Origin: a virus
IMG/VR virus record: IMGVR_UViG_3300006310_000001
Length of the DNA: 64,000 nucleotides
Reading direction: 5' to 3' (one strand)
Shown here: positions 16,930 to 62,147 of the stretch, piece after piece
How the letters are laid out: each line of letters begins with the position of its first letter
Position numbering within the stretch: the first letter of the stretch is position 1
Notes under the pieces: model-generated
Seen by the model: the letters and a program-made list of their open reading frames with translations, nothing else
Database searches by the model: none
What the model was told of the DNA's origin: nothing
Made by a program: the position numbers and the translations under genes

Positions 16930-17544
16930 CTAATCTATCAAATACTTATAACAAATTGGGAAATGGTCTTTCATATGTCTTGATAACTGGTGAGTGACCA
17001 TTCTCGTTTCTGCTTGAGCATTACTCTTACTCCTTAAATTACATACTCTACTAAATGCAAATACACTACCTGACCATATCCACTCGGTCATCATACATTG
17101 AGGTAGTACCATACGTGCCATTTCTGGTGCAATACCTTCCTCTAACATATCATTGTATGTTTCTGTAGCCACATTTATTAAATGTGTAATATCATATTCT
17201 ACTTCTTCATCACTTGAACCTTGTTTAATACTCTTCTCTGGTTTCTTTCTCCACATAAAAGGTATATAAAACTCTGGTTTATCTGAAACATATCGTCTAC
17301 TCACTTCGTTCCAACTTAAACCTACTTGATGTTTAACTAATTGTCTTGCAACAAAGATAGGTGCTTTAATTCTAAATGATAGAAAGGCGTGTGCAAATGG
17401 TGACCAATGTCCGTGCAATGCCAAATACTTAATTAACTTGTCATCTTTTTCATCAAGTTTATCTTTTCTTTTTGCAAAGGATACTCTAGCAGCATTGACT
17501 ACTGATAGGTCACTACCTAATTTATCTATAAGTTCTATATCCAT
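16930..17544 (-). CDS. thyX: flavin-dependent thymidylate synthase
   Basis: VVNAARVSF, GHWSPF, RQLVKHQVGLSWNEVSRRY, MARMVLPQ. Confidence 0.97.
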   Translation of the reverse strand: MDIELIDKLGSDLSVVNAARVSFAKRKDKLDEKDDKLIKYLALHGHWSPFAHAFLSFRIKAPIFVARQLVKHQVGLSWNEVSRRYVSDKPEFYIPFMWRKKPEKSIKQGSSDEEVEYDITHLINVATETYNDMLEEGIAPEMARMVLPQCMMTEWIWSGSVFAFSRVCNLRSKSNAQAETRMVTHQLSRHMKDHFPICYKYLID

Positions 17545-18120: not shown

Positions 18121-18149
18121 ACTATAACATATTTATTAGTAAATGTAAA
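18121..18149 (-). promoter_or_regulatory. sigma70-type promoter TTTACA-N17-TATAGT upstream of gp33
   Basis: 17 nt spacer, directly upstream of the gp33 start. Confidence 0.55.
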
Positions 18150-18410
18150 GCGCCTGACTTCTGTTGCCGCCTGTCAGGCAAAGACCGTTGCCTATTAACT
18201 AGGCAGCAAGAGCATAACTTTCGTTAGCTTTTATATGTTTGTCCTTTAAAGTAGCAACCTACTATCTAACTCCAGTTAGTTTTGATTGTGAATCGATCCT
18301 GTATCATCCCCCATAAGCACACTTGAAATCAATGTGTTTATGGTGGAGATGGTGAGAATTGCACTCACGTCTTCTCCAACTATTATCTAACCTTCAACGT
18401 CAAATTCATT
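18150..18410 (-). ncRNA. ssrA: permuted two-piece tmRNA (ssrA)
   Basis: Acceptor piece GTGAG-TGCAATT-CTCAC T-arm then CATCTCC-ACCA ending at 18341; intervening hairpin; coding piece starts GGGGATG at 18311 (G3:U70 pair); tag ORF 18228-18199 = ANESYALAA-stop; 3' hairpin GCCTGAC..GTCAGGC. Outer ends approximate. Confidence 0.9.
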
Positions 18411-18792
18411 ATAAACTTATTCCTTTGCCTTTAAACTTTAAATCAAATGACTTGTATAACATACAAGACTCTAGTCCATTCATTGTTGACATAACTACAA
18501 GTGATATTGTATATGTAGGGTCAACATAATAACTTACTATAAAAACTGGTTCACCATCTGGTCTAGCTCTATCTCTACCAACAGAAACATTAACCAAAGT
18601 CATTTCGTTCTTTTCTATATATGCAAGTACACTTTCACTTGTTCCACATATAACAGGCATTTGTAACCAATATAATTGTCCTTGTTCACTTGGAAATTCA
18701 GGCAATGGTGATGTTTCCTGCTCCGCCATAGCAAGTGTGCTCATAGTTATGAGTACTGCTCCAAATATTATTGATTTTAACCTTTTTAACAT
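18409..18792 (-). CDS. secreted hypothetical protein
   Basis: Signal peptide (ALA-like cleavage site), two Cys. Confidence 0.7.
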   Translation of the reverse strand: MLKRLKSIIFGAVLITMSTLAMAEQETSPLPEFPSEQGQLYWLQMPVICGTSESVLAYIEKNEMTLVNVSVGRDRARPDGEPVFIVSYYVDPTYTISLVVMSTMNGLESCMLYKSFDLKFKGKGISL

Positions 18793-34310: not shown

Positions 34311-35128
34311 ACGTTTTGTTCTTGTAATGTTCTATAAGCAGTTCCATCTGTAATTTCAGATATTGTAAATTGATTTTCTGCAATCATCTTTAACCATTCT
34401 GTTATAGTCTTTCGTCCTGGTCTCATTGGTTTGTTTATAAACTTTATATCTTTTGATGAAACAAATGACGCTATATTTCGTTGATGGCATATTACAGGTA
34501 CTTGATTTAATATTGAATCAATAGCAGATAAACTCATATTGGTTACCAAACAATGAGCATTTTTTAAGTCTTCTTTAATATCTGTATTCCAAAACTCATT
34601 ACCAGGTCTAGGTTTATTTCTAAATCTAACTGGTTTATCTGTATGTTCTGCTATCTGTTTTGTTGCTTGTTCAACCCATTGTGATTGGCTCATACCATTG
34701 ATTTGGTAAGTTACCGTTTCAGAAGAAGGTGCTACTAGTATATGAGTTGTTTCTCCAGTATTCCACCCTTTAAACTGTACATCAATCCCTTGATGCTCTA
34801 GTTTCTGTAATCTTGAACCAGGTCCAACTTTGCACCTAATCGTGTGTATATTACCTTTACATATTCTAAAATATGTCTTATCGTAATCGTGTATTTTAGG
34901 TTCTGGATATCTTGTAATTTGTTGTGTTAAATAACCAACATCTACGTACCACCATTCCTCACCACTCTCCATACATTTACGTATTTCTTTTCTATTCTGT
35001 CCAGCTAACCCCCAAAAAAAGTGAACAGGTTTATCTGTATCAGTCCAACCTTTTTCTATGGCAGGAAATAACTGTTTACTTAAACATTTATCCCAAGGTA
35101 TATTATGCGTTATTATCATAAGTTTCAA
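34307..35128 (-). CDS. GT-B-like / capsule polysaccharide-type protein
   Basis: WWYVDVGY; ILVAPS; VRFRNKP; LKNAHCLVTNMSLSAIDSILNQVPV. Confidence 0.5.
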   Translation of the reverse strand: MKLMIITHNIPWDKCLSKQLFPAIEKGWTDTDKPVHFFWGLAGQNRKEIRKCMESGEEWWYVDVGYLTQQITRYPEPKIHDYDKTYFRICKGNIHTIRCKVGPGSRLQKLEHQGIDVQFKGWNTGETTHILVAPSSETVTYQINGMSQSQWVEQATKQIAEHTDKPVRFRNKPRPGNEFWNTDIKEDLKNAHCLVTNMSLSAIDSILNQVPVICHQRNIASFVSSKDIKFINKPMRPGRKTITEWLKMIAENQFTISEITDGTAYRTLQEQNV

Positions 35129-36158
35129 ATACTGTATTCAATGATTGGTTACATCTAACAAAACTTGCACATTTAGGAATATCTTTTAGTCGTCTTGCAC
35201 CAATATAGGTACAACTTGACCTAACACCCCCTAATATATCTTCTATTGTTTCTTTAACAGCACCTCTATCAGGTAATATTACTGCTCGTCCTTCATTACC
35301 TCTATAACCGTCTTTTCGTTTTCCGTGTACTTCTCTTGCTCTATCAGAAGACATCCCATAAAACTCTCTTTTACCATCTTTACTTTCTACTTCACTTTCA
35401 TTATGTCCTGCTAACATTCCACCTAACATCACAAAATGAGCACCACCACCAAATGCTTTCGCAATATCTCCTGGCATATTACAACCACCATCTGCAACTA
35501 TATGACCACCAACACCATTAGCAGCGTCAGCACACTCTACTACTGCACTAAATTGAGGTACACCTACACCTGCCATTGTTCTTGTTGTACATACACTACC
35601 TGGTCCAATACCTACTTTAACTACGTCTGCACCTTGTATAATTAGTTCTTCGGTCATTTCAGCAGTTACTACATTACCTGCAATTATAGTTTTGTCTGGA
35701 TACTCTTCTCTAACTGCACCAACAAAATCTGAAAAGTTTGTATGGTAACCATTTGCAACATCTACTGTAATAAACTTAACATCTGGAAAACTCTTTAATA
35801 CTTTTTGCATTGTAGTATAATCTTCAGCATTATCATCCCATAATTTACCTGTGCCTGTACATACTGATAGATACTTTAATTTAATACCTTCACCTACTGC
35901 TTTTCTCCATTGTTCTATCGTTGTTGTCTTTGTAATCGTGGTCAACATCTTATACTCTTGTATAACTTTCGCCATACTAAATGTTCCCACTCCATCCATA
36001 TTACTTGCTATTATTGGACAACACTCATATGTTTCACCAGAATTTCTAAATGTAAATGACCTAGTCATTTCTACATCACGTCTTGATGATAATGTTGACC
36101 GTTTAGGTTTCAACAATACGTCTTTATAATCTAATTTTACTTCGTTATCTAATCTCAT
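35103..36158 (-). CDS. guaC: GMP reductase
   Basis: KLDYKDVLLKPKRSTLSSRRDV, PIIASNMDGVGTF, DVANGY, KVGIGPGSVCTTR, FYGMSS, LGGVRSSCTYIGA. Confidence 0.96.
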   Translation of the reverse strand: MRLDNEVKLDYKDVLLKPKRSTLSSRRDVEMTRSFTFRNSGETYECCPIIASNMDGVGTFSMAKVIQEYKMLTTITKTTTIEQWRKAVGEGIKLKYLSVCTGTGKLWDDNAEDYTTMQKVLKSFPDVKFITVDVANGYHTNFSDFVGAVREEYPDKTIIAGNVVTAEMTEELIIQGADVVKVGIGPGSVCTTRTMAGVGVPQFSAVVECADAANGVGGHIVADGGCNMPGDIAKAFGGGAHFVMLGGMLAGHNESEVESKDGKREFYGMSSDRAREVHGKRKDGYRGNEGRAVILPDRGAVKETIEDILGGVRSSCTYIGARRLKDIPKCASFVRCNQSLNTVFETYDNNA

Positions 36159-36907
36159 TGTACTTTTCTCCAAGCTGTTCCATTTTTTATTTCTGTCATA
36201 GTAAATTGATTTGCTAATAAACTATATATCCAGTTTAATCTAGCAGGTCTTATAGGTTGTTCTATTTTACTAAAATCGGTTAACCCCATTGGTACACCCA
36301 TATTCATTTTATCACAAAATACAGGTACCCCATTTAAAATAGCGTCAACTACAACTGCTGAATTATGAGATACTATAGCATATGCACTTTGTACTTCTTC
36401 TCTTAAAGGTCTGCTACTCTTTTTATCTCTTACTTTAATAGGTCTATCTGTATATTGTTTTAAAGTCTTTATAGTATCATCAACCCAACTACCTATATTA
36501 TGATATGCTATTTGAAAATGAGAAGGTGCTATAATTAAGATATAATTGCCATCACTTTTCCAGGGTTGTAATTTTATATACTGTTTATACTTTTTAATTC
36601 TTTCATTATCTTCATCTGTTAGTTCTTGTATAGTTTGTATATGATAATGATTTTTTGTTAATCTATATATTCTCTCACCAGTTACCTTTGATGGAGAGTG
36701 TCTATTACCATATAAGTAAGCGTGGTCAAAATAATAAAACTCTTTACTTTGTTTCAAAAGTTCGCCTGTGCCTCTTAATATTCCAAAACAAGTAATAGGT
36801 TTATCTATATCAACATCTTTAACATTATGTAATGTTCCTCCTGCACTTGAAACAAAATGTCTTACAATATCATCTGTTGCTGGTCTAGTTAATAATCCTT
36901 GTATCAT
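36155..36907 (-). CDS. GT-B-like / capsule polysaccharide-type protein (paralog)
   Basis: FYYFDHAY; ILIIAPS; IKVRDK; AYAIVSHNSAVVVDAILNGVPV. Confidence 0.5.
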   Translation of the reverse strand: MIQGLLTRPATDDIVRHFVSSAGGTLHNVKDVDIDKPITCFGILRGTGELLKQSKEFYYFDHAYLYGNRHSPSKVTGERIYRLTKNHYHIQTIQELTDEDNERIKKYKQYIKLQPWKSDGNYILIIAPSHFQIAYHNIGSWVDDTIKTLKQYTDRPIKVRDKKSSRPLREEVQSAYAIVSHNSAVVVDAILNGVPVFCDKMNMGVPMGLTDFSKIEQPIRPARLNWIYSLLANQFTMTEIKNGTAWRKVQ

Positions 36908-37820: not shown

Positions 37821-38575
37821 TCTGGACTATTTGCTTGTTTTTTTCTTTGTCCTTTTCTATGGTCTATATATGGGTTAAGAAACGTATCTCTTGCCATTAT
37901 ATGTCCATTTCTACCATCCCCTAGTGGTTTTTCACTATACCTGGGATCGTTTTTAAACATTTGCCTAGTACCGTCCAATGTATGGCAATCTGTCCAAAAA
38001 TTCTTTCCTAATTTCTTTATTGTATATACTTTATCTGTTATATACCATTTTTTATATTCACGAAAAAAGTCATCTACTACACGACTTCTATTATTAAATG
38101 CAACAAAACCTGTTTCTGTATATTGTGATGGTCTATGATAAAATGATAAAAATGTTAAATCTGGTAAACAGTTCTGATACCAAGAGTCGTGTATTGTGTC
38201 CATAAACTTACAATCACTATCTACATAATATATTTTAGTTCCCCAACCTCTTGCTGCTGATTGAGCAAATACTTTATAACTAAATCTTACCGCTTCTTCA
38301 TAAAAATTATTTGCTGTTCTATGTTTATTTCTTTGAACAAAATCTTTACAATCTGGTTCAAAGTCAAATAAATTATAATAATGTACTCTATCTACTTTAG
38401 GATATAAATTTGGATTATCTTCAACAAAAACATACATATGTGGTTTTTGATTTGTTGCCACGTATGAGTCAATTAATTGATGAGCATAATCATCATATAA
38501 TCTTTTATTAAATGTTGTACAAAATATGTATGGGGCTAATCCCCTAGTTGGTCCGTATGCTCCGAGTCCGCTCAT
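37802..38575 (-). CDS. GT-A-like glycosyltransferase
   Basis: AVRFSYKVFA, YYVDSD (DxD), YTETGF, WTDCH; probable start MSGLG. Confidence 0.65.
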   Translation of the reverse strand: MSGLGAYGPTRGLAPYIFCTTFNKRLYDDYAHQLIDSYVATNQKPHMYVFVEDNPNLYPKVDRVHYYNLFDFEPDCKDFVQRNKHRTANNFYEEAVRFSYKVFAQSAARGWGTKIYYVDSDCKFMDTIHDSWYQNCLPDLTFLSFYHRPSQYTETGFVAFNNRSRVVDDFFREYKKWYITDKVYTIKKLGKNFWTDCHTLDGTRQMFKNDPRYSEKPLGDGRNGHIMARDTFLNPYIDHRKGQRKKQANSPEWRRNR

Positions 38576-39621
38576 ATACAATTCTCTGGAGCATCCCAAA
38601 GTCTTGGTACTCCTGATTGATGGTCACTACAATATCTACCTACATCAGCGTCAACCATTTCTTTCATTAAACTCTCTACATTATGTTTATGTTCCCAACC
38701 TAATACTTCTCTTGCCTTACTAGCATCCCCTTGTAATACATCTACCTCAGCAGGTCTTAAATGTTTCTTATCAGTAGTAATAATTAATTGATTGCCGTCT
38801 GTAAAACACTTACCATCTTTCCAATAATGTTTTATTCCTTTATAATCTAATGCCATATCTGCAAATTCTTTTACTGTATGAATTTCACCAGTTGCTAATA
38901 CATAGTCATCTGGTTTATCGTGTTGTAGCATTTGCCACATACCTCTAACAAAATCCTCAGCGTGTCCCCAATCTCTTTTTGCATTTAAATTTCCTAAAAC
39001 AATTGGTCTTCCTTCTTGCAACCAATGTGCTAAACCTTTTGATATCTTTCTAGTTACAAAGTCCTCACCTCTATGTGGACTTTCGTGATTAAATAAAAGA
39101 CCACAACAAGCAAACATATCATACGCTTCTCTATAATTAATTGTTATATGATGAGCATATAGTTTTGCAACACCATATGGTGACCTCGGCCAGAATTTTG
39201 TTGTTTCTTTTTGTGGCGTTTCAAATACTTTTCCATACATTTCACTTGTACTTGCTTGATAGAATTTTATTTTAGGATTTACTTGTCTTATACTTTCTAG
39301 TATTCTCAAAGGACCCATTGCGTCTATTAGAGTAGCAAGTTCTGGTTGTTTAAATGATAACCATACAAATGATTGAGCAGCTAAATTATATACTTCGTCT
39401 GGTTGAGATTCCTCTATTGCTCTTCTTATATTCGCTTGGTCTATTACATCAAGTTCAACAAACTCTATTTGGTCTGTAATACCCATTTCATCTAGTCGCC
39501 AATGTTTTGGTGATGTACTTCGTCTTTGTCCACCAAATACTTTATAACCTTTTTCTAATAACAATTTAGCAAGATAAGCGCCGTCTTGTCCAGTTATACC
39601 TGTAATCAATGCTCTTTTCAT
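38572..39621 (-). CDS. gmd: GDP-mannose 4,6-dehydratase
   Basis: ALITGITGQDGAYLA, YNLAAQSFV, QASTSEMYG, PRSPYGVAK, FNHESP, FVTRKI, RDWGHA, RPAEVDVL. Confidence 0.97.
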   Translation of the reverse strand: MKRALITGITGQDGAYLAKLLLEKGYKVFGGQRRSTSPKHWRLDEMGITDQIEFVELDVIDQANIRRAIEESQPDEVYNLAAQSFVWLSFKQPELATLIDAMGPLRILESIRQVNPKIKFYQASTSEMYGKVFETPQKETTKFWPRSPYGVAKLYAHHITINYREAYDMFACCGLLFNHESPHRGEDFVTRKISKGLAHWLQEGRPIVLGNLNAKRDWGHAEDFVRGMWQMLQHDKPDDYVLATGEIHTVKEFADMALDYKGIKHYWKDGKCFTDGNQLIITTDKKHLRPAEVDVLQGDASKAREVLGWEHKHNVESLMKEMVDADVGRYCSDHQSGVPRLWDAPENCI

Positions 39622-40772
39622 TTTATGTCCTTTGTTATGTGATATACCATATCAATATTTTCTTTTAAATCTCTTATATCATTTCCTATAAACAAACCAT
39701 TGTTATGAATATAATCTGCATTTGGACAACTATTATTATAATAATCAAGATAATCTATTACAGGATTGTTCATAAAATTACCTGCAACAATAGGTCTACA
39801 CTCTACTCCGTTTTCTGTAAGTTTCTTAACAAGTTGGTCTCTTTTGCCTTCATATTCATCAACTAACAAAATGGAAAATCCAAACCAACTAGACTCTCCT
39901 ATTTCTTTTTGTAATTGTACACCTGGCATTTCTTCAAACTTATGTTGAAAATAGTTTGCATTACGAATTCTTTGTGTTCTCATTTCTTGTTCTTTTTTAA
40001 GTTGTACACTTCCAATTGCACCACTCATTTCTAAAGGTCTTACACTATAACCTGGAGTTACAAACGTAAAACTATCTTTAAACTTATCACCTGTCTTTTT
40101 ATAAATCTTATTATCGTCTGGTAAATCTCTACACCAACCGTGTGCTCTTAATGACCTTAAATAATCAGCGTCATCTTTATTTCTACAAGCAATCATTCCA
40201 CCTTCCATTGTTTGTAAGTGATGTGAAAAGAAGAAAGAAAAACTACCTAAATCAGCAAACGTTCCACAATATTCATAGTTATATGTCTGAGCACCTAAAC
40301 TCTCACAATTGTCCTCTATTAACATAAGGTTGTGTTCTCTAGCAATATGCATTAATGAATAATGGTCACAGGAGTTACCTAAAAGATTAACTGCAAATAT
40401 AGCGCAAGTATCGTCATTAATTGCTTCTCTAACTTTATTAGGGTCTATATTTAAAGTTTCTCTATCTACATCTACAAAATTTAATTTGAAACCGTATTGT
40501 TGTAATGGAAAGTATGTTGTTGACCAAGAAACAGCAGGTACAATTATATTACCACCTTTTTTATATTTTAATTTTAACAATGCTATCATTAATAGATTAG
40601 CAGTTGAACCACTATTAACCATAACTGCGTCATTACATCTAAAATATTTGGCAAACTCTTGCTCAAACTTCTTAACGTAAGGACCCATTGTATATCGCCC
40701 ACTTTTTATGACTTCTTGTATTGCGTGTAACTCTTTATGATCCCAAGTATCACTAGCTAATTGATATTTCAT
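39618..40772 (-). CDS. colD: DegT/DnrJ-fold enzyme, ColD-type GDP-4-keto-6-deoxymannose 3-dehydratase
   Basis: VNSGSTANL, VPAVSWSTT, EDNCES, SFFFSHHLQTMEGG (His at the usual PLP-Lys position), RAHGW. Confidence 0.85.
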   Translation of the reverse strand: MKYQLASDTWDHKELHAIQEVIKSGRYTMGPYVKKFEQEFAKYFRCNDAVMVNSGSTANLLMIALLKLKYKKGGNIIVPAVSWSTTYFPLQQYGFKLNFVDVDRETLNIDPNKVREAINDDTCAIFAVNLLGNSCDHYSLMHIAREHNLMLIEDNCESLGAQTYNYEYCGTFADLGSFSFFFSHHLQTMEGGMIACRNKDDADYLRSLRAHGWCRDLPDDNKIYKKTGDKFKDSFTFVTPGYSVRPLEMSGAIGSVQLKKEQEMRTQRIRNANYFQHKFEEMPGVQLQKEIGESSWFGFSILLVDEYEGKRDQLVKKLTENGVECRPIVAGNFMNNPVIDYLDYYNNSCPNADYIHNNGLFIGNDIRDLKENIDMVYHITKDIK

Positions 40773-54552: not shown

Positions 54553-55641
54553 TTAACACCCGCCAGTTATCGTATTAGTATAATCTGCTGTTTGATTGTT
54601 TCTGTTATATGAATAGGTACAACTATCATTACCGTCTTGATTCACGTGTAAAGTATAGTCGTATATTGAATCACCTGATACATAAAGATAAGCATAGTTG
54701 TCATCATTAAGTTGTTTAAGGTTAACAATTGCGTCATCTGTATAGATATAAACTTTTGCTACATTATCATCACCATTTGCATAGTAAGTAAATGTATTAT
54801 CGTTTCCAACAGTAACCGTTTTCATCCAATTGTCATCACCTCTTTGTATCATTCTTACGTGACTACCTGTGCAACAGGAGTGAACATCTAAAATATTTGA
54901 ATCACCTATGATATCGTGAACTTGGTAGTTACTTTCGCCCCAAATTCCTGTGTGTACTCTATTAGAATTTCCTATAATGTAAAAATCTATTGTTGCACCT
55001 TCACTACCTGAATCATCTGCAAAGATTCCGTGAGAAGCAACATCTGGACCTATCATTATATTTGCCTTGTCAGAACCAACCATACCTTTTGATTCTGCTC
55101 TGTTACTATAAAATTCTACATCATTTGAATCTCCATTAATCAATACATATAAGAAGTGTGAATCACCGTGAGAATTCATCCAAAAATCATTTGAGTCTCC
55201 TACAATATCTAAATCAAGGTGTGTATCCTGTACATCATCACTTGTATTTGTATCTATCTCTACTATGTTTGATGAACCTGTAATATCAATGTCATAATAG
55301 TGTCCATCTGCGCCTACATCATCTAAATCTAATCTTAATACATTGGAACTACCTACAGCATAATAATCAAAGGTCATATTAGAACCCATAAATGCTCTAT
55401 GGTTGCTATCTTTAGCAACATTATTGTCACCTATTTGTTTAATTATAAGAGTAAGATTTGGTCCGTTGACTAAAAAAGGATATGATGTGCTTAACCCAAC
55501 CATATTACCAGTACCATCTTGTTTGATGTAGATGGAACCATCATCATCTTGGTTAACTTGCCAAATATATACTGAATTTCCTGCTAGACAATTAATCGTT
55601 GTCGCTAGAAGAATCACTAGAGCCATTATCATTTTCTTCAT
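54553..55641 (-). CDS. curlin-like repeat protein
   Basis: Signal peptide; repeats KQDGTGN, KQIGDNN, AVGSSN, ITGSSN, IVGDSN, INGDSN, IQRGDDN, KQLNDDN. Confidence 0.78.
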   Translation of the reverse strand: MKKMIMALVILLATTINCLAGNSVYIWQVNQDDDGSIYIKQDGTGNMVGLSTSYPFLVNGPNLTLIIKQIGDNNVAKDSNHRAFMGSNMTFDYYAVGSSNVLRLDLDDVGADGHYYDIDITGSSNIVEIDTNTSDDVQDTHLDLDIVGDSNDFWMNSHGDSHFLYVLINGDSNDVEFYSNRAESKGMVGSDKANIMIGPDVASHGIFADDSGSEGATIDFYIIGNSNRVHTGIWGESNYQVHDIIGDSNILDVHSCCTGSHVRMIQRGDDNWMKTVTVGNDNTFTYYANGDDNVAKVYIYTDDAIVNLKQLNDDNYAYLYVSGDSIYDYTLHVNQDGNDSCTYSYNRNNQTADYTNTITGGC

Positions 55642-56590
55642 TTGTGTTCTCCTTTTCTTTTAACTCGTCTTGAATCTTTTTCTTACGTTCTTCTTTTTGG
55701 TTTTCTTTTTCTAATAGATAATCTTCGTATGTTTTCTCTACATTAGGTTCTTGTTGTTCTATAACTACTTCAACCTTTTCTTCTGTAATGACTTCTGCGT
55801 CTGACTCTTCAACAATAACTGGCTTTTCAATTTCCCATAAGCCTTTTTCGTCACCTTCTTTTATCAATTCTACTATACCTTTTTCTATTGCTTTTCTTAC
55901 TGCAAAGGTAACAGGTTCATTTCTTGCAACACCAACCTCTAACTCTAATAACAATGTATCAGCGTCAAAGTATTTGAATATATCTCCACCAGTTTCACCT
56001 GAAATTATAGTTTTCTCAACTACTATTGATATTACTACTTCACCAGTTTGTACATTAACTAATCTTAAAATAATAGTAACTACATCTTGTCGCCATTGTT
56101 TATGTGCTTGAATGCCTAAAATTCTTGCACCATAACCGCCTGTCTTTACATCACTATCATAACCTATAATTCCACCTGTAAGATATGCACCTGCAAACAA
56201 TAGTGGAGGTAAAGATTGTGCTTTATCACCATCAACTTGTTGTCTTGTAGAACGTATTAATTTTCGTTCTTGTAATAGACTTGGCAAACTTGCTCGTTCT
56301 ACTACTCTAAACCATTTGCCATCGCCTGCGTCTTGTAATGCTTTAATTAATATTTGATATGCACCTTGAGTTACTGCCGTACTCATTGTTGCATAATTGC
56401 CACCTGGTTTCTTTTGACCAGTTAAATCCATAAAATCATACACAGCAATTACAACAGGTTCACCGACAGGTGATTCTATTGTAGTTAAATTTTTAACTGC
56501 TGGTATTTGTTTTCTAACATCAAAGTCTGGCTTACCTGCACAACTAACTAACAATAATGTTAACAAAAATATTGCTATACTTCTAAACAT
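55592..56590 (-). CDS. csgG: curli secretion channel CsgG
   Basis: Lipobox LVSC; VAVYDF.D.TGQKKP; STAVTQG..LIKALQD; WFRVVER; LLQERKLIR. Confidence 0.95.
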   Translation of the reverse strand: MFRSIAIFLLTLLLVSCAGKPDFDVRKQIPAVKNLTTIESPVGEPVVIAVYDFMDLTGQKKPGGNYATMSTAVTQGAYQILIKALQDAGDGKWFRVVERASLPSLLQERKLIRSTRQQVDGDKAQSLPPLLFAGAYLTGGIIGYDSDVKTGGYGARILGIQAHKQWRQDVVTIILRLVNVQTGEVVISIVVEKTIISGETGGDIFKYFDADTLLLELEVGVARNEPVTFAVRKAIEKGIVELIKEGDEKGLWEIEKPVIVEESDAEVITEEKVEVVIEQQEPNVEKTYEDYLLEKENQKEERKKKIQDELKEKENTNEENDNGSSDSSSDND

Positions 56591-57042
56591 TAATCTTCCT
56601 TCGGCATAGTAAATGTCGTTACTGTTCCATCCGTTTCAGTAACAGTCACTACTACGTTACCTGTTCCTGAAGGTGTTGTCCACTCAACAAGTTCTCCACC
56701 AATTGGTGATGTAAATGAACCTGTATCTTGTTGTAGACCATCAGCACCAAATATATTTGTTGTAATTTGTTTTGCTAGTGCTGTATAGAACCTTGATTCT
56801 AAATTTGCTTTGAATTTTGCTACTGCTGTATTTTTAGCATCCTCTTTGACTTTATCAGCCGCTGCTTTTTCAGCTGCTTTTATAGCGTCTTTACGAGTCT
56901 TCTCTATATTTTCTACAGTTAAATAGTGTGATGATTTTCCTTCCCCACTAAAGGATGGACTATCAAATTTAAATGTTAATTCACTTGCATTTGCTATAGA
57001 ATATAATGATAATACTGCTAATATTGTAATGATTATTCGCAT
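56590..57042 (-). CDS. csgF: curli assembly protein CsgF
   Basis: ASELTFKFDSPSFSG; NLESRFYTALAKQI...FG. Confidence 0.88.
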   Translation of the reverse strand: MRIIITILAVLSLYSIANASELTFKFDSPSFSGEGKSSHYLTVENIEKTRKDAIKAAEKAAADKVKEDAKNTAVAKFKANLESRFYTALAKQITTNIFGADGLQQDTGSFTSPIGGELVEWTTPSGTGNVVVTVTETDGTVTTFTMPKED

Positions 57043-57063
57043 TTTCCTTCTCTCTTTGATGTA

Positions 57064-57071
57064 TATATTTA
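57064..57071 (-). promoter_or_regulatory. late promoter TATAAATA for the curli operon
   Basis: Exact consensus ~22 nt upstream of csgF. Confidence 0.7.
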
Positions 57072-57097
57072 TAAGATATCTGTACTAAATAGTACGT

Positions 57098-58753
57098 ATG
57101 ATTAAAATATTGACGAAAACGTGGGCAGTATATTTGACGTTGATTATATTACTTGGAATATATATATCAAATCCTATCTTGCTACAGTCAGCAAAACTAA
57201 ACACCTTTGATTTCTACCAAACATTTGGTAAGAATTATGAATCCAAGAGTTTAGTACTAGTAGACATATCAGACAAAGCATTAGAAAAGAATGGGCAATG
57301 GCCGTGGAAGAGAGATTTACTTGGTCGTGTCATAATCAATGCATATAAAAATGGTGCCGCTCTTGTAGTTCTGCAAGTAGTCTTCCCACATAAAGATAGA
57401 TTAGGTGGTGATGAAATGTTTTTGAAAATGATTTCAAAATATCCAATCATACTTACTGAAACCGATACTGTAAAAAATCTTATTAGTATCTCACGTAAAG
57501 CAATAGCAATAGGTAATGTATCTGCACCAGTTGATATAGATGGCACTATAAGAAAACTACCTCTTGATAAATCCATACCTGAAGTTATCTTAAAAGTTAT
57601 TAATGCAAAAACTTTAGCAGAAGATACTATTTGGATTGATTTCAGACATAATATTCCTAGAATAGATTACACCGATAAAGATTGGTCATCTGTAAAAGGT
57701 AAAATAGTTTTCATAGGTACAACATTCCAAGGTTCAACATTTGTTACTACTCCTAATGGATTAAAAAACACACACGAAATTATGGCAATCAGTACAGAAA
57801 CTTTATTGTCAGGTAATTTTATTAGTAGACCTTATTGGTTACCATATAGTGAATTTGCTTTTATACTATTAGGTGCTCTATTCTTTCTCATAGTTATACC
57901 TAGATGTGGTGTAATGTGGTCTGCGATATGGTTTGGTGGATACTTATTTGATTTAACACTTGCAAGTTCTTATCTATGGACGCAACACTTAATCATAACT
58001 GATTGGTTCAGTCCACTTGTAATAGGGTCTGTAATATGGGGTCAGTTAACATACAATAACTATTCAAAAGAAAATAAATTAAGACTACAAATTAAGAAAC
58101 AATTTGAACACTATCTATCTCCAGATATGGTTAAGAAACTACAAAAGAATCCATCTCTATTAAAACTTGGTGGTGAAAGAAAAGTAATGACGTTTTTGTT
58201 TTCAGACATACGTGGCTTTACTCCTATATCGGAATCTATGAAAGGTAATCCAGAAAAACTTACCAAGTATGTTAATAAGTTCTTGACTGTAATGACTGAT
58301 ATAATATTAAAAAATGGTGGTACTATTGATAAGTATATGGGTGATTGTATAATGGCATTTTGGAACGCACCCCTAGACAATCCAAATCATCAAAGACTAG
58401 CAGTACTATCTGCATCCCAAATGAAAAAAACAGTTGAAGAAATGAATAAGAGTGGAGAGTTTGACCCACCTTTAAAGATTGGTATAGGTATCAATACTGG
58501 TGAGTGTCTTGTAGGTAATATGGGGTCTGAACAACGTTTTGATTATTCTGTTATTGGTGACGCTGTTAATTTGGCAAGTAGATTGGAAGGTAAGAGTAAA
58601 GATTTTGATACTACAATAGTAATATCTCAACATACTGCTGAAGGTATTGACTTTGTTCCATTGGCAAGACCAGATGGATTTAAATTCTATAAACTAGGTA
58701 TCTCTACTGTAAAAGGTAAAAAAGAAAAGGTTAATTGTTTTTCTATTAAATAA
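57098..58753 (+). CDS. CHASE2-domain class III adenylate/guanylate cyclase
   Basis: LVDISDKAL..GQWPWKR (CHASE2), 3 TM, TFLFSDIRGFT, GTIDKYMGDCIMAFW, GDAVNLASRLE. Confidence 0.95.
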   Translation: MIKILTKTWAVYLTLIILLGIYISNPILLQSAKLNTFDFYQTFGKNYESKSLVLVDISDKALEKNGQWPWKRDLLGRVIINAYKNGAALVVLQVVFPHKDRLGGDEMFLKMISKYPIILTETDTVKNLISISRKAIAIGNVSAPVDIDGTIRKLPLDKSIPEVILKVINAKTLAEDTIWIDFRHNIPRIDYTDKDWSSVKGKIVFIGTTFQGSTFVTTPNGLKNTHEIMAISTETLLSGNFISRPYWLPYSEFAFILLGALFFLIVIPRCGVMWSAIWFGGYLFDLTLASSYLWTQHLIITDWFSPLVIGSVIWGQLTYNNYSKENKLRLQIKKQFEHYLSPDMVKKLQKNPSLLKLGGERKVMTFLFSDIRGFTPISESMKGNPEKLTKYVNKFLTVMTDIILKNGGTIDKYMGDCIMAFWNAPLDNPNHQRLAVLSASQMKKTVEEMNKSGEFDPPLKIGIGINTGECLVGNMGSEQRFDYSVIGDAVNLASRLEGKSKDFDTTIVISQHTAEGIDFVPLARPDGFKFYKLGISTVKGKKEKVNCFSIK

Positions 58754-58835
58754 ATGTTAATATCAAATAACAACTTAACCCTATAACTATTCCTAATACT
58801 GCAACAACACCTGCTAAGGTATATATTGTCTTCAT
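58746..58835 (-). CDS. hydrophobic micro-ORF (29 aa)
   Basis: Manually read MKTIYTLAGVVAVLGIVIGLSCYLILTFI. Confidence 0.4.
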   Translation of the reverse strand: MKTIYTLAGVVAVLGIVIGLSCYLILTFI

Positions 58836-58996
58836 TTTTTGTCTGTTAACTTATTAATAAGTTCAAACGCTACTTTAACTTTCTCTTCCAACACTTTAAT
58901 TCTATAGTGTGATTGTGCTAAAGTAACTATCAATAACACAAATGCTACTAGCATCGGCCAAAGTCTACTCAACATTAATACTGCTTCACTATCCAT
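58832..58996 (-). CDS. small membrane protein (54 aa)
   Basis: Manually read MDSEAVLMLSRLWPMLVAFVLLIV... Confidence 0.5.
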   Translation of the reverse strand: MDSEAVLMLSRLWPMLVAFVLLIVTLAQSHYRIKVLEEKVKVAFELINKLTDKK

Positions 58997-59181
58997 TACT
59001 GTACTATTTCATCTCCTGTTTTTACATTGGGTCTTGGTTTCTCACAAACAGAACAATCACATTTACTACAAATAATAGTTACTGTCTTTTGATTTCGTAA
59101 TCCATCTGGACTAGAAGTAATATACTCCATTAACTTTTCAGGACAATGAGCTTCCCTACCACAATTTTTACATTTTTCCAT
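58996..59181 (-). CDS. small Cys-rich protein
   Basis: CKNCGREAHC...CSKCDCSVC. Confidence 0.6.
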   Translation of the reverse strand: MEKCKNCGREAHCPEKLMEYITSSPDGLRNQKTVTIICSKCDCSVCEKPRPNVKTGDEIVQ

Positions 59182-60377
59182 TACTTTTTAAACTTTGTTG
59201 CCTCTTCTGAACCGCCTGTTGCTGTTCCTTTTGTATAAGAATGAGCACCCATACCTGCAAGGTCTCCATCTTTAACAATTAAATATTGATTTCTTATTTC
59301 TGTTCCATCAAATAAACACTCTAGTATTTCTCTTACACCAGCAGCATATCTTGTTTGTGCTGATAGTGAAGTACCTGAAGTGTGTGGTGTCATACCGTGG
59401 TTAGGCATTGTTCTCCATACGTGGTCATTAGGTGCTGGTTGTGGAAACCATACATCACCTGCATAACCGCTTAATTGTCCTGACTCTAATCCTCTAGCAA
59501 CAGCATCCTTATCACAAATTTTTCCTCTTGCTGTATTAATTATGTACGCACCTTTTTTGCACTTACTAATTAAATCATCATTAAACATATGTTCAGTTTC
59601 AGGATGTAAAGGACAACTTATATTAATCACATCACATACTGCAACTAACTCCTCAACTGAATTGTGATATATTAAATTTAATTCTTTCTCTTTATCTTCT
59701 GGCAATCTATGCTTATCAAAGTAATGTAGGTGTACATCAAATGGTTTCATCTTTCTTAACATATCATAACCTATACGTCCAGCAGCAATTGTACCTATAT
59801 GCATACCTTCTACGTCATAAGAACGTTTAACTGCGTCAGCTATATGCCAACCACCTTCGTTAACTATTCTATGTTGATTATGATAATCTCTAACTAGTGC
59901 TAGTATCATCATAACAATATGTTCTGCAACACTTCTACTATTACAATAAGTTACTTCAACTACATCAACTTTATGATCCATAGCCGCTTGTAAATCTACG
60001 TGGTCTGAACCAATACCTGCTGTAATTGCCATCTTTAAATTTGGAGCACTCTCTATTCTTTTTCTATTTAAATAGTACGGCCAGAATGGTTGTGATATGA
60101 CTACATCTGCGTCAACTAGTTCTTTATCTGCAACGCAACCATCTGCGTCTTTATCAGAAGTAACTACTAACGTATGTCCTGCGTCTTCTAAAAACTTTCT
60201 TAATCCTAATTCACCTGACACACATCCTAATAAATCACCTGGTCTAAAATCAATACCCTTTGGTGTAGGTAGTGTCATTCCATCTGGATACTTTTCTAAT
60301 TTTGGTAAGTCTTTGACTGGATATGATTTTGGCATTCCATCTTTAGGGTCGTCATATAATATACATAATATTTTCAT
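59181..60377 (-). CDS. fdh: NAD-dependent formate dehydrogenase (bacterial type)
   Basis: LYDDP..YPDG.TLPTPKGIDFRPG.LLGCVSGELGLRKFLE; ISQPFWPYY; GIGSDHVDL; AAGRIG; NTARG; GDVWFPQPAP; MTPHTSGTSLSAQTRYAAG. Confidence 0.96.
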   Translation of the reverse strand: MKILCILYDDPKDGMPKSYPVKDLPKLEKYPDGMTLPTPKGIDFRPGDLLGCVSGELGLRKFLEDAGHTLVVTSDKDADGCVADKELVDADVVISQPFWPYYLNRKRIESAPNLKMAITAGIGSDHVDLQAAMDHKVDVVEVTYCNSRSVAEHIVMMILALVRDYHNQHRIVNEGGWHIADAVKRSYDVEGMHIGTIAAGRIGYDMLRKMKPFDVHLHYFDKHRLPEDKEKELNLIYHNSVEELVAVCDVINISCPLHPETEHMFNDDLISKCKKGAYIINTARGKICDKDAVARGLESGQLSGYAGDVWFPQPAPNDHVWRTMPNHGMTPHTSGTSLSAQTRYAAGVREILECLFDGTEIRNQYLIVKDGDLAGMGAHSYTKGTATGGSEEATKFKK

Positions 60378-60380
60378 TAT

Positions 60381-60557
60381 CTATTTTCCTCTATTAATTG
60401 TTCTCTTAACTAAATCAACAGTACTTTTACTAATATCTTTAGTCCTTGTTAATAAACCACTACCTAGCTTTTCTATTGTTGCTCTAGTTTTTATCGTTGT
60501 TTGTTTATATTTTCCTGTTTTTGGATCATACTTTTGCTGTAAAAATTGCATTACCAT
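60381..60557 (-). CDS. small basic protein (58 aa)
   Basis: Manually read MVMQFLQQKYDPKTGKYK... Confidence 0.45.
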   Translation of the reverse strand: MVMQFLQQKYDPKTGKYKQTTIKTRATIEKLGSGLLTRTKDISKSTVDLVKRTINRGK

Positions 60558-60928
60558 TATTCCTTCTCCTTTTCTTTTTTCTTATCATCTGGTTCATAAT
60601 ATTCTTTATATTGGTCAAGTAAATCATTAGTGTGTTTCAAGTGTGCTCTTATTTGAGCAAAGTTTTTTGCAATTAATTGAAAGTCCTTATCACTCAATCC
60701 AAATAGTACTGGATCAAGTCCTTGTTCTTCCATCTTTTGGAATACTTCTTCTGCATTGTCAGAAGTAATTATAATCCACCTCAACTTTTCAAGTTCAGGC
60801 ATAGTAGGTTTAACTAAATCTAATTTCTGTCTAGGTTCTTCTAACTTAAATATTTTAAGTTGTTTCTCACCAATTGAACAACCAGTAAGTATTAGAACAG
60901 CAATGATACTAATTATTATACGGTACAT
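60557..60928 (-). CDS. lipoprotein, o-spanin (Rz1-like) candidate
   Basis: Start MYRIII; lipobox LTGC; Pro-rich N-region; overlaps the i-spanin candidate. Confidence 0.6.
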   Translation of the reverse strand: MYRIIISIIAVLILTGCSIGEKQLKIFKLEEPRQKLDLVKPTMPELEKLRWIIITSDNAEEVFQKMEEQGLDPVLFGLSDKDFQLIAKNFAQIRAHLKHTNDLLDQYKEYYEPDDKKKEKEKE

Positions 60929-61385
60929 AATTTGGGTTGGCAATGCTTGGACATTCCCTATTAATTTCTGATTTTTTAGTTGCGTTAATTTCTTTTTCGG
61001 TAAGTGGTGAACCACCTGCTATCTCTACACAACGGATTGCTTTATCACTAGCACCGTTAATAATTCTTTGTATAGTTTCTGTTTTTTCTATGGCGAGTTT
61101 ACCAAAGTCACGACCTTTTTTATTAAATCTTTTATCTAAATCATCTAAATCTTTTTTAAGAGCTGAAACAAGTTCGTTCATCTTGTTGTTTGCTTTTAAA
61201 ATTTCTTTAAAGTCTTCTTGTTGCTTAGCAATGAGTTCCTTTTGAGAACTCACTGCTTCTTCCAATTTGATTTGATTCGCTTTTAAAATGGCATTATCGG
61301 ATCGTAACTTCATTACATACATACCTGCACCTGCAAGTCCTGTAATCATCACAACTACCATCGCCATTTTTAAATAACCAAACAT
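60909..61385 (-). CDS. i-spanin (Rz-like) candidate
   Basis: N-terminal TM, long coiled coil, C-terminal Cys pair. Confidence 0.6.
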   Translation of the reverse strand: MFGYLKMAMVVVMITGLAGAGMYVMKLRSDNAILKANQIKLEEAVSSQKELIAKQQEDFKEILKANNKMNELVSALKKDLDDLDKRFNKKGRDFGKLAIEKTETIQRIINGASDKAIRCVEIAGGSPLTEKEINATKKSEINRECPSIANPNYVPYNN

Positions 61386-61565: not shown

Positions 61566-62147
61566 TTATTTTATCTTGGCACCAACTTTTCGGTGCTTAT
61601 TCCAAGCCAAAAAACCACCTAGTCTTAAAGAATAATATGCTAGATAGTTCATAAGATAGAATCCATTTACTCCGATATTAATATCTCTAAAGATTTCATC
61701 TGCTCTTTTTTGAGATATAACACCAAGGGTATCTGCCTTATTTATTTTTAATAGTGTTTGATATTTATAAGCATAATCGTGTACCAAACCACCCATTAAA
61801 AGTACTCCTACTGGTGATAAAAATGTATGCAAGAATTTTGGTATACTTGCACCGTCAAATTTAAATCCAGCTGGTATCGTATATTTTATATCGTTTAATT
61901 CGTATTCAAAATCTTCTGCAATTTCCCAATTTCTTGTAGTGAGTATCCACAAAAGAATTCCTTTAAAAAAACCTTTGCCTTTTGTTCTTATTGGCAACGC
62001 TCTCATAACTGGCATTTTATTATATGTAAAGTTATGACATTTAGGTTTCTTCTTATCAAATAAATTGATAATTAATCCTGCTATAATAACTAAAATTACT
62101 ATTGTCCACATCCAAAACTTCATTGCTAAACTTATTATTAGTTCCAT
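61566..62147 (-). CDS. DUF1353-like protein
   Basis: IPAGFKFDGASIP...GLVHDYAY...ADEIF. Confidence 0.75.
   Translation of the reverse strand: MELIISLAMKFWMWTIVILVIIAGLIINLFDKKKPKCHNFTYNKMPVMRALPIRTKGKGFFKGILLWILTTRNWEIAEDFEYELNDIKYTIPAGFKFDGASIPKFLHTFLSPVGVLLMGGLVHDYAYKYQTLLKINKADTLGVISQKRADEIFRDINIGVNGFYLMNYLAYYSLRLGGFLAWNKHRKVGAKIK

Follow-up and report, generated by a model that had tools for sequence, protein, structure and literature searches.

A predicted NAD-dependent formate dehydrogenase encoded as an optional gene by pelagimyophage-type marine phages

Formate dehydrogenase (FDH) has been reported in the pelagimyophage PMP-MAVG-4, for which Zaragoza-Solas et al. 2020 (PMC7029224) list FDH, GMP reductase, coproporphyrinogen oxidase and porphobilinogen deaminase as unique genes. 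There the enzyme is described through the structure of FDH-H, a molybdenum- and selenocysteine-containing (Mo/Sec) protein that converts formate to CO2 + 2H+, and direct generation of a proton gradient is suggested. Our literature search found this paper as the only report of the gene in marine phages; a Citromicrobium phage paper concerns an unrelated Fdn-N beta-subunit-like protein. Here we analyze the FDH gene in a stretch of 64,000 nucleotides from IMG/VR virus record IMGVR_UViG_3300006310_000001, which as a whole is called the window. The gene lies at 59181..60377 (-), and the original prediction, made from the sequence without database searches, read it as a phage-encoded, NAD-dependent FDH.

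The window comes from a T4-like myophage that encodes a gp5 OB domain, baseplate proteins, gp32, gp59, NrdA/NrdB and ThyX, and it also carries a permuted alpha-type transfer-messenger RNA (tmRNA), a csgF-csgG-curlin-like operon and a divergent CHASE2 cyclase. Since these hallmarks match the group described in PMC7029224 and PMC9004378, we assign the window to the pelagimyophage/Melnitz type. PMP-MAVG-4 and the window are alike in GMP reductase (GuaC), FDH and the curli csgGF operon, and the PMP-MAVG-4 FDH is probably the window's gene, carried either by this very phage or by one nearly identical to it.

Identity of the enzyme and residence in the phage genome

The FDH open reading frame (ORF) starts with ATG and encodes 398 amino acids (aa). 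It scores 651.4 bits against the NCBIfam equivalog model NF005750, whose cut-off is 329, and covers profile positions 3-385 of 386. The next-best family, PGDH, gives 152 bits against its own cut-off of 454, and other 2-hydroxyacid dehydrogenase models likewise fall far below their cut-offs. PF00389 (2-Hacid_dh, residues 61-363) wraps PF02826 (2-Hacid_dh_C, residues 155-333), which is the two-domain architecture of D-2-hydroxyacid dehydrogenases. A PDB search matched the ORF end to end with the dimeric FDH structures 2GO1, 2NAC and 2GSD (E ~1e-195), and because the alignment to 2NAC has zero gaps across residues 2-393, the residue numbers are those of the Pseudomonas sp. 101 enzyme (PseFDH). 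All the motifs on which the original prediction relied (AAGRIG, YFDKHR, NTARG, PQP and PH) were found at the PseFDH positions. The active-site set comprises Pro97, Phe98, Ile122, Asn146, Arg284 (in NTARG), Gln313 (PQP) and His332 (TPH); the GxGxxG fold is formed by AAGRIG at residues 198-203 (IAAGRIG, with Gly200), and the NAD-selecting Asp221 lies in YFDKHR. The active-site residues, Gly200 and Asp221 are each invariant among full-length homologues, namely the window copy, 60 viral copies and 74 cellular copies.

A molybdenum- or tungsten-dependent (Mo/W) enzyme of the FDH-H or FdsABG type was considered and ruled out. A Pfam scan of the ORF returned only 2-Hacid_dh, 2-Hacid_dh_C and NAD_binding_2 and no molybdopterin or Fe-S families, and the strong PDB matches are all metal-free FDHs. 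At the level of sequence comparison, the ORF is confirmed as an intact, single-subunit, metal-independent and NAD-preferring formate dehydrogenase (EC 1.17.1.9), an ordinary enzyme in a known category.

We found that the gene resembles its surroundings. As had been noted from the sequence alone, it is AT-rich like the rest of the genome (GC content 0.354 vs 0.322 for the window), and its GC content at third codon positions (GC3) is 0.178, compared with 0.211 +/- 0.046 in 52 other window ORFs and 0.273 in the nearest cellular copies. Its placement between a spanin-like pair and small phage ORFs was also borne out. FDH occurs together with phage genes in dozens of IMG/VR loci, and the gene order is repeated in independent metagenome assemblies. 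When all window ORFs were compared by tblastn with 80 cellular FDH loci, FDH was the only gene in common, with none of the 80 sharing any other window gene; conversely, no cellular-type flank was found at 80 viral FDH loci. These results bear on an assembly chimera or contamination, in which host DNA would have been misjoined to a phage contig. The 82-91% identity of cellular homologues could be taken in its favor, but identical junctions recur in at least 12 contigs drawn from different metagenomes, phage genes with overlapping stop and start codons lie on both sides, cellular loci share no flanking gene, and synonymous sites are saturated relative to the nearest cellular copies (dS 1.6-2.1). 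We regard the chance of a chimera as practically nil, and this explanation is already refuted as far as the sequence data reach.

Among phage FDH copies, the ratio of nonsynonymous to synonymous substitution (dN/dS) is 0.03-0.10 at dS 0.1-1.0, and between the window FDH and its phage relatives it is 0.05-0.10. The 80 viral copies kept for analysis contain no stop and no frameshift. Low dN/dS combined with saturated synonymous sites relative to cells argues that FDH has long resided in phages under strong constraint. Coupling to adjacent genes, transcription signals, composition, flanks and selection all indicate that the gene is the phage's own. In operational terms it is an auxiliary metabolic gene (AMG), having phage genes on both sides, with no host flank or provirus edge, and both recurrence and purifying selection in phages.

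Distribution and ancestry of viral formate dehydrogenases

One scan of IMG/VR, the kind of survey that the original prediction had proposed, yielded 108 contigs with FDH. While PMC7029224 treats FDH as unique to one 'deep ecotype', we observe it in >100 viral contigs from several lineages. The initial impression that FDH is not a commonly described phage AMG needs qualifying, since the gene is already on record for PMP-MAVG-4 and occurs in so many contigs. Viral FDHs fall into at least three FDH clades and occupy at least five genomic contexts. In the window type, FDH directly follows the spanin pair, beside the cyclase and curli genes; elsewhere it adjoins GuaC (L010), lies between nrdA and nrdB (L073, L076 and L078), stands next to gp32 (L018) or is immediately upstream of the terminase large subunit and tail sheath genes (L029). 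L073, L076 and L078, whose FDHs form part of a deep-branching all-viral clade, have nrdA/nrdB of a divergent ribonucleotide reductase (RNR), the NrdA being ~22% identical to the window's. Two FDH-bearing viral contigs, G407 (127 kb, CheckV 35%) and G408 (197 kb, CheckV 55%), have completeness estimates that imply genomes of >300 kb, and on these estimates FDH carriers may include jumbo phages.

In INPHARED, the GenBank phage set, from which the window's own record may have been excluded, a DNA search gave no match and tblastn no genuine phage FDH. The best tblastn rows, at 44% identity, were unannotated multi-contig 'Staphylococcus phage' records that look like host contigs and were set aside. 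OR845000.1, OR849882.1 and similar unannotated 'Staphylococcus/Listeria/Salmonella phage' records carry host-chromosome-type dehydrogenase genes and look like misfiled host contigs.

FDH is not carried by all close relatives of the window. The absence of FDH from the closest virus record, G001, is uninformative, as this record is a fragment of 90 kb. Using CsgG as an anchor, we surveyed the insertion site in 25 IMG/VR loci spanning the spanin-to-CsgG interval and found FDH in 6 of them, with the other 19 lacking it. In three of the relatives without FDH (L162, L163 and L169), the flanking proteins reach 100% identity with those of the window, and precisely the FDH ORF is missing. These relatives join window position 60382 to 59188 at an A-rich microhomology with an overlap of ~7 nt, and the limits of the FDH cassette are 59182..60388 (-). 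The 58-aa ORF directly upstream of FDH (60381..60557 (-)) is kept in FDH-less relatives, where it abuts the 61-aa Cys-rich ORF found downstream of FDH in the window (58996..59181 (-)) and overlaps it by the same ...AAAAGTAATGG that ends the window FDH. Because near-identical relatives lack exactly FDH, the gene represents a cassette-like polymorphism, present or absent with single-gene precision, within a hypervariable region. This natural FDH+/FDH- pair of near-identical phages lends itself to testing the fitness value of an AMG.

A neutral or transient passenger, acquired from cells, being lost and of no use to the phage, could leave a similar pattern: FDH sits where the genome varies, between the structural/lysis and curli modules; it is missing from 19 of the 25 related loci; and exactly this gene distinguishes near-identical relatives. 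Such a passenger is nevertheless very improbable considering the dN/dS of 0.03-0.10 among phage copies that are dS 0.4-1.0 apart, the lack of any stop or frameshift in 80 viral copies, the ameliorated composition, and the retention of FDH at several genomic positions in divergent phages.

The relationship between viral and cellular FDHs was examined in a rooted IQ-TREE phylogeny of 88 rows (LG+C20+F+G4; ultrafast bootstrap / SH-aLRT support), with outgroups P0121, P0139 and P0137 taken from a representative-library search that otherwise gave mostly fragments. Among named reference genomes, the closest cellular FDHs are those of SAR86 (88-91% identity), with Pelagibacteraceae at 81-83%; Opitutales, Chloroflexota, SUP05 and other cellular FDHs are 82-85% identical to the window FDH. 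Clade A (100/99) contains the window copy, 29 other viral FDHs, 8 from SAR86, 1 from SUP05, 2 from Chloroflexota and 1 from a 'Pelagibacteraceae' metagenome-assembled genome (MAG). Viral FDHs of clade B1 are sister to and nested within Pelagibacteraceae, clade B2 is all-viral and deep-branching, and SAR11 FDHs fall outside clade A. Altogether, well-supported branches require at least 6 virus/cell label changes. Within clade A, curli-syntenic phage rows form a basal grade with the SAR86 subgroup inside (nodes 85/90, 85/85 and 98/91), and the RNR-bearing phage contig L016 nests within that subgroup. A single clade of the clade-A viral rows, a group defined after seeing the tree, was rejected by the approximately unbiased (AU) test (delta lnL 127, p-AU 7e-6). 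As judged from these alignments and trees, it is settled that the window FDH allele differs from the ordinary SAR11 type and that FDH has been exchanged repeatedly between phages and cells.

The original prediction had tied the gene to SAR11 and called for a phylogeny against host FDHs. That tie proved only partly correct. One other phage clade (B1) does lie within SAR11; the window allele, in contrast, groups with SAR86, SUP05 and Chloroflexota in clade A, its closest cells being SAR86 and not SAR11, whose 81-83% identical FDHs are placed elsewhere. We rejected the 'Pelagibacteraceae' MAG L094 (CAWUVR010000066.1) as SAR11 evidence, as the proteins in its flanks share 87% identity with those of a SAR86 MAG reported by the same study but 52% with Pelagibacteraceae, and the contig was probably mis-binned.

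FDH loci of clade-A SAR86 genomes are mutually syntenic and share nothing with the loci of main-clade SAR86 FDHs. Two FDH types, located at unrelated sites in the chromosome, occur in SAR86 genomes (L081-L095 vs L097-L147), each genome having one of them, and the type shared with phages shows synteny only within its subgroup. Each of 5 genomes checked (2 SAR11, 3 SAR86) has one true FDH. In larger samples, many of whose genomes are incomplete, single-subunit FDH was found in 52 of 201 SAR86-order genomes and in 53 of 201 Pelagibacter-family genomes; the latter tally includes the unpublished genome G074, and publishing the figure needs the permission of its depositors. One Pelagibacter-family FDH, at G067:C2:43569-44729, contains 3 TGA and 4 TAA and is a pseudogene, and one SAR86-order genome has two tandem FDH copies (G398:C2:40453-43964).

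Clade A might be an FDH lineage kept mainly in marine myophages and passed to the SAR86 subgroup, SUP05 and Chloroflexota, with the corollary that some pelagimyophage-like phages, possibly the window's, infect SAR86 instead of or besides SAR11. We put this forward tentatively, as a rather unlikely scenario. In its favor are the basal phage rows and the nested SAR86 subgroup of clade A, the AU rejection of a single viral clade, the two SAR86 FDH types at unrelated sites and the placement of L016. A related phage, moreover, is known to have moved from an alphaproteobacterial host to a gammaproteobacterial one (PMC9004378). As host markers, the cell-like genes of the window give a mixed signal: orthologues of GuaC (54%) and a solute-binding protein (49%) were found only in the SAR11 genome tested, and of GDP-mannose 4,6-dehydratase (Gmd; 49%) only in a SAR86 genome. 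The window tmRNA says little about the host, since an alpha-type tmRNA is found in the OM43 phage Melnitz as well (PMC9004378), and the host assignment of PMP-MAVG-4 is called tentative by its own paper (PMC7029224). If the scenario is true, phages are vectors that spread an energy-metabolism gene through plankton. The repeated phage-cell exchange across bacterial classes to which the FDH tree points is also relevant to the host range of these phages, a group in which a host jump is already known.

Proposed role in infected cells

We consider it likely that the window phage keeps a working, homologue-typical NAD+-dependent FDH as an optional AMG of its flexible genome, turning host formate into NADH. 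The NADH-supplying AMG first proposed for this gene remains the most economical reading, with an activity predicted from homology. The enzyme would move a hydride from formate to NAD+, yielding CO2 and NADH without a metal, molybdopterin or partner subunit, and its gene probably shares a transcript with the spanin and small-ORF genes, to which it would also be coupled in translation. Formate could be drawn from the end of tetrahydrofolate (THF)-linked C1 oxidation as well as from reactions that release it, peptide deformylation among them. The resulting NADH may feed respiration and ATP synthesis, which would be useful where light-driven proton pumping is unavailable, and may, via transhydrogenation, support the NAD(P)H-consuming ThyX, GuaC and RNR of the phage. 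An FDH made from one gene with NAD+ as sole cofactor should be usable in any host, including the ~3/4 of sampled SAR11/SAR86 genomes in which no FDH was found.

Several points weigh against this role. FDH appears dispensable, given the 19 of 25 related spanning loci without it. Of 5 large FDH-bearing phage contigs, 3 encode peptide deformylase and 1 encodes GTP cyclohydrolase I as formate sources that would suit this role, but the co-occurrence of deformylase with FDH is unspecific because deformylase is common in marine myophages generally. The reductant consumers of the phage mostly use NADPH, not NADH, and formate oxidation would compete with the supply of formyl-THF for purine synthesis. 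Additionally, the promoter evidence is weak, comprising consensus matches only, with the late-promoter motif TATAAATA unenriched.

Formate sources also matter for the idea that removal of formate is the main benefit, FDH holding formate and pH in check with NADH as a by-product. Infection would raise formate through phage deformylase acting on massive late protein synthesis, through GTP cyclohydrolase I and through C1 flux; the deformylase and cyclohydrolase genes in the large FDH-bearing contigs fit this idea, as does the position of FDH in a lysis-proximal, presumably late operon. However, formate is membrane-permeant as formic acid and is not known to be toxic at the levels made by a tiny oligotrophic cell, and the scan of window ORFs revealed no enzyme that produces formate. 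We judge removal improbable as the main benefit, and it is compatible with NADH supply.

The reaction could in principle also run in reverse in vivo, with CO2 and NADH giving formate for formyl-THF and purine synthesis toward phage DNA. NAD-linked FDHs are reversible in principle by established enzymology, and the phage invests heavily in nucleotide metabolism (ThyX, GuaC and NrdAB). The equilibrium and kinetics of the PseFDH/CbFDH families nevertheless strongly favor formate oxidation, as is generally known, and viral copies carry no sequence change separating them from oxidizing homologues, making a reductive role extremely improbable.

The turnover of marine dissolved organic carbon is due in large part to SAR11, SAR86 and their phages, and the C1 units of methylated compounds end as formate. 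Under the preferred reading of formate oxidation for NADH, a phage FDH would alter how much formate carbon infected cells respire, and it would confer this function on hosts without an FDH.

Neighboring genes and comparison with known systems

FDH lies in a run of minus-strand genes. Upstream, an i-spanin-like protein with an N-terminal transmembrane segment and coiled coil (60909..61385 (-); PHROG 739 Rz-like spanin, E 5e-8) is encoded in overlap with the gene for an o-spanin-like lipoprotein (60557..61015 (-); PHROG 812 Rz-like spanin, E 9e-7). From the o-spanin gene through the 58-aa ORF, FDH and the Cys-rich ORF to a 54-aa predicted membrane ORF (58832..58996 (-)), successive genes are joined by TAATG stop/start overlaps, except that the 58-aa ORF, which has a Shine-Dalgarno-like GAGGA in its 3' end, stops 3 nt before the FDH ATG. 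The 61-aa ORF has a CxxC...CxxC pattern, its ATG overlaps the FDH stop, and it is retained beside FDH in L001, L002 and L004-L006 at 70-100%. The 54-aa ORF is the final gene of the run, before the convergent CHASE2 cyclase. Pfam and PHROG scans gave no family matches for the small ORFs immediately around FDH. More broadly, the flanks consist of spanins, DUF1353/tail-chaperone-like genes and PHROG families upstream and of curli, NrdAB and further genes downstream.

Two candidate promoters precede these genes. A sigma-70-like match (TTGCCA-17-TATAAT, 11/12; consensus only) lies at 60915..60943 (-), upstream of the o-spanin/58-aa ORF/FDH run, and a T4 late-promoter-type TATAAATA lies at 61762..61769 (-), upstream of both spanin genes. 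Across the window the late-promoter motif shows no enrichment, with 10 matches vs 16 expected by chance. No minus-strand terminator-like site was found between 62300 and 58600.

The curli operon region (54553-58753) includes csgF (56590-57042), csgG (55592-56590) and the divergent CHASE2-adenylate/guanylate cyclase (57098-58753 (+)). An exported repeat protein at 54553-55641 has a weak, sub-threshold CsgA match (NF007470, E 2.5e-5). As CsgA/B are reported in the literature as missing from these phages, this protein may be the missing curli subunit. The window also encodes ThyX, GuaC, Gmd and an aminotransferase (16930-17544, 35103-36173, 38572-40772), and the phage thus invests in nucleotide and sugar-nucleotide metabolism consuming NAD(P)H. 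The permuted two-piece tmRNA at 18149-18446 (-), with the tag peptide ANESYALAA, scores 82 bits with Rfam alpha_tmRNA and 101 bits with tmRNA_permuted, and permuted tmRNAs are known in the pelagimyophage/Melnitz group (PMC9004378).

Compared with the FDHs of Pseudomonas sp. 101 (PDB 2NAC/2NAD/2GO1) and Moraxella sp. C-1 (2GSD), the phage enzyme is of similar length (398 vs 400-401 aa), shares the two-domain fold family, and is identical at all active-site and NAD-binding residues. Position 222 is Lys in the window FDH and Arg in that of Pseudomonas sp. 101, and Lys variation is also seen in cellular marine copies. Unlike the Pseudomonas gene, the window copy is phage-encoded and AT-rich; it belongs to a tight marine-plankton cluster with a long branch to the nearest non-marine outgroup representative, P0121 (65% identity).

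The metal-free, NAD-linked type predicted for the window enzyme differs from the FDH-H mechanism given for PMP-MAVG-4 (PMC7029224), and this corrects the literature from an FDH-H-type enzyme to a NAD-linked FDH. Because the window protein is of the NAD-linked type, any energy gain must run through NADH; NADH-fed respiration could rescue the ecological idea of that paper by a route other than FDH-H protons. In cultured SAR11 Ia, THF-linked C1 oxidation ends in a multi-subunit molybdoenzyme (fdhF/fdsB/fdhD plus molybdenum cofactor genes; Sun et al. 2011, PMC3160333). For formate, the C1 oxidation of SAR11 to which the original prediction appealed thus proceeds, in cultured Ia strains, with a different, Mo-dependent enzyme. 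Both enzymes would carry out the same overall reaction, ending THF-linked C1 oxidation and yielding a reduced nucleotide, whereas the SAR11 Ia enzyme is unrelated and multi-subunit and the phage FDH is one polypeptide with NAD+ as its sole cofactor.

Phage FDH is a real and under-described AMG. What is new here is the correct enzyme class, the viral breadth and multiple origins, the clean FDH+/FDH- polymorphism and the SAR86-linked, virus-dominated clade. Cyanophage AMGs such as zwf, gnd, talC and CP12, which belong to central metabolism, are thought to make the host supply more reduced nicotinamide cofactor to nucleotide synthesis. Their target is the pentose-phosphate pathway of phototrophs and their yield NADPH, whereas FDH would turn a C1 waste or end product into NADH in cells infected by phages of heterotrophs.

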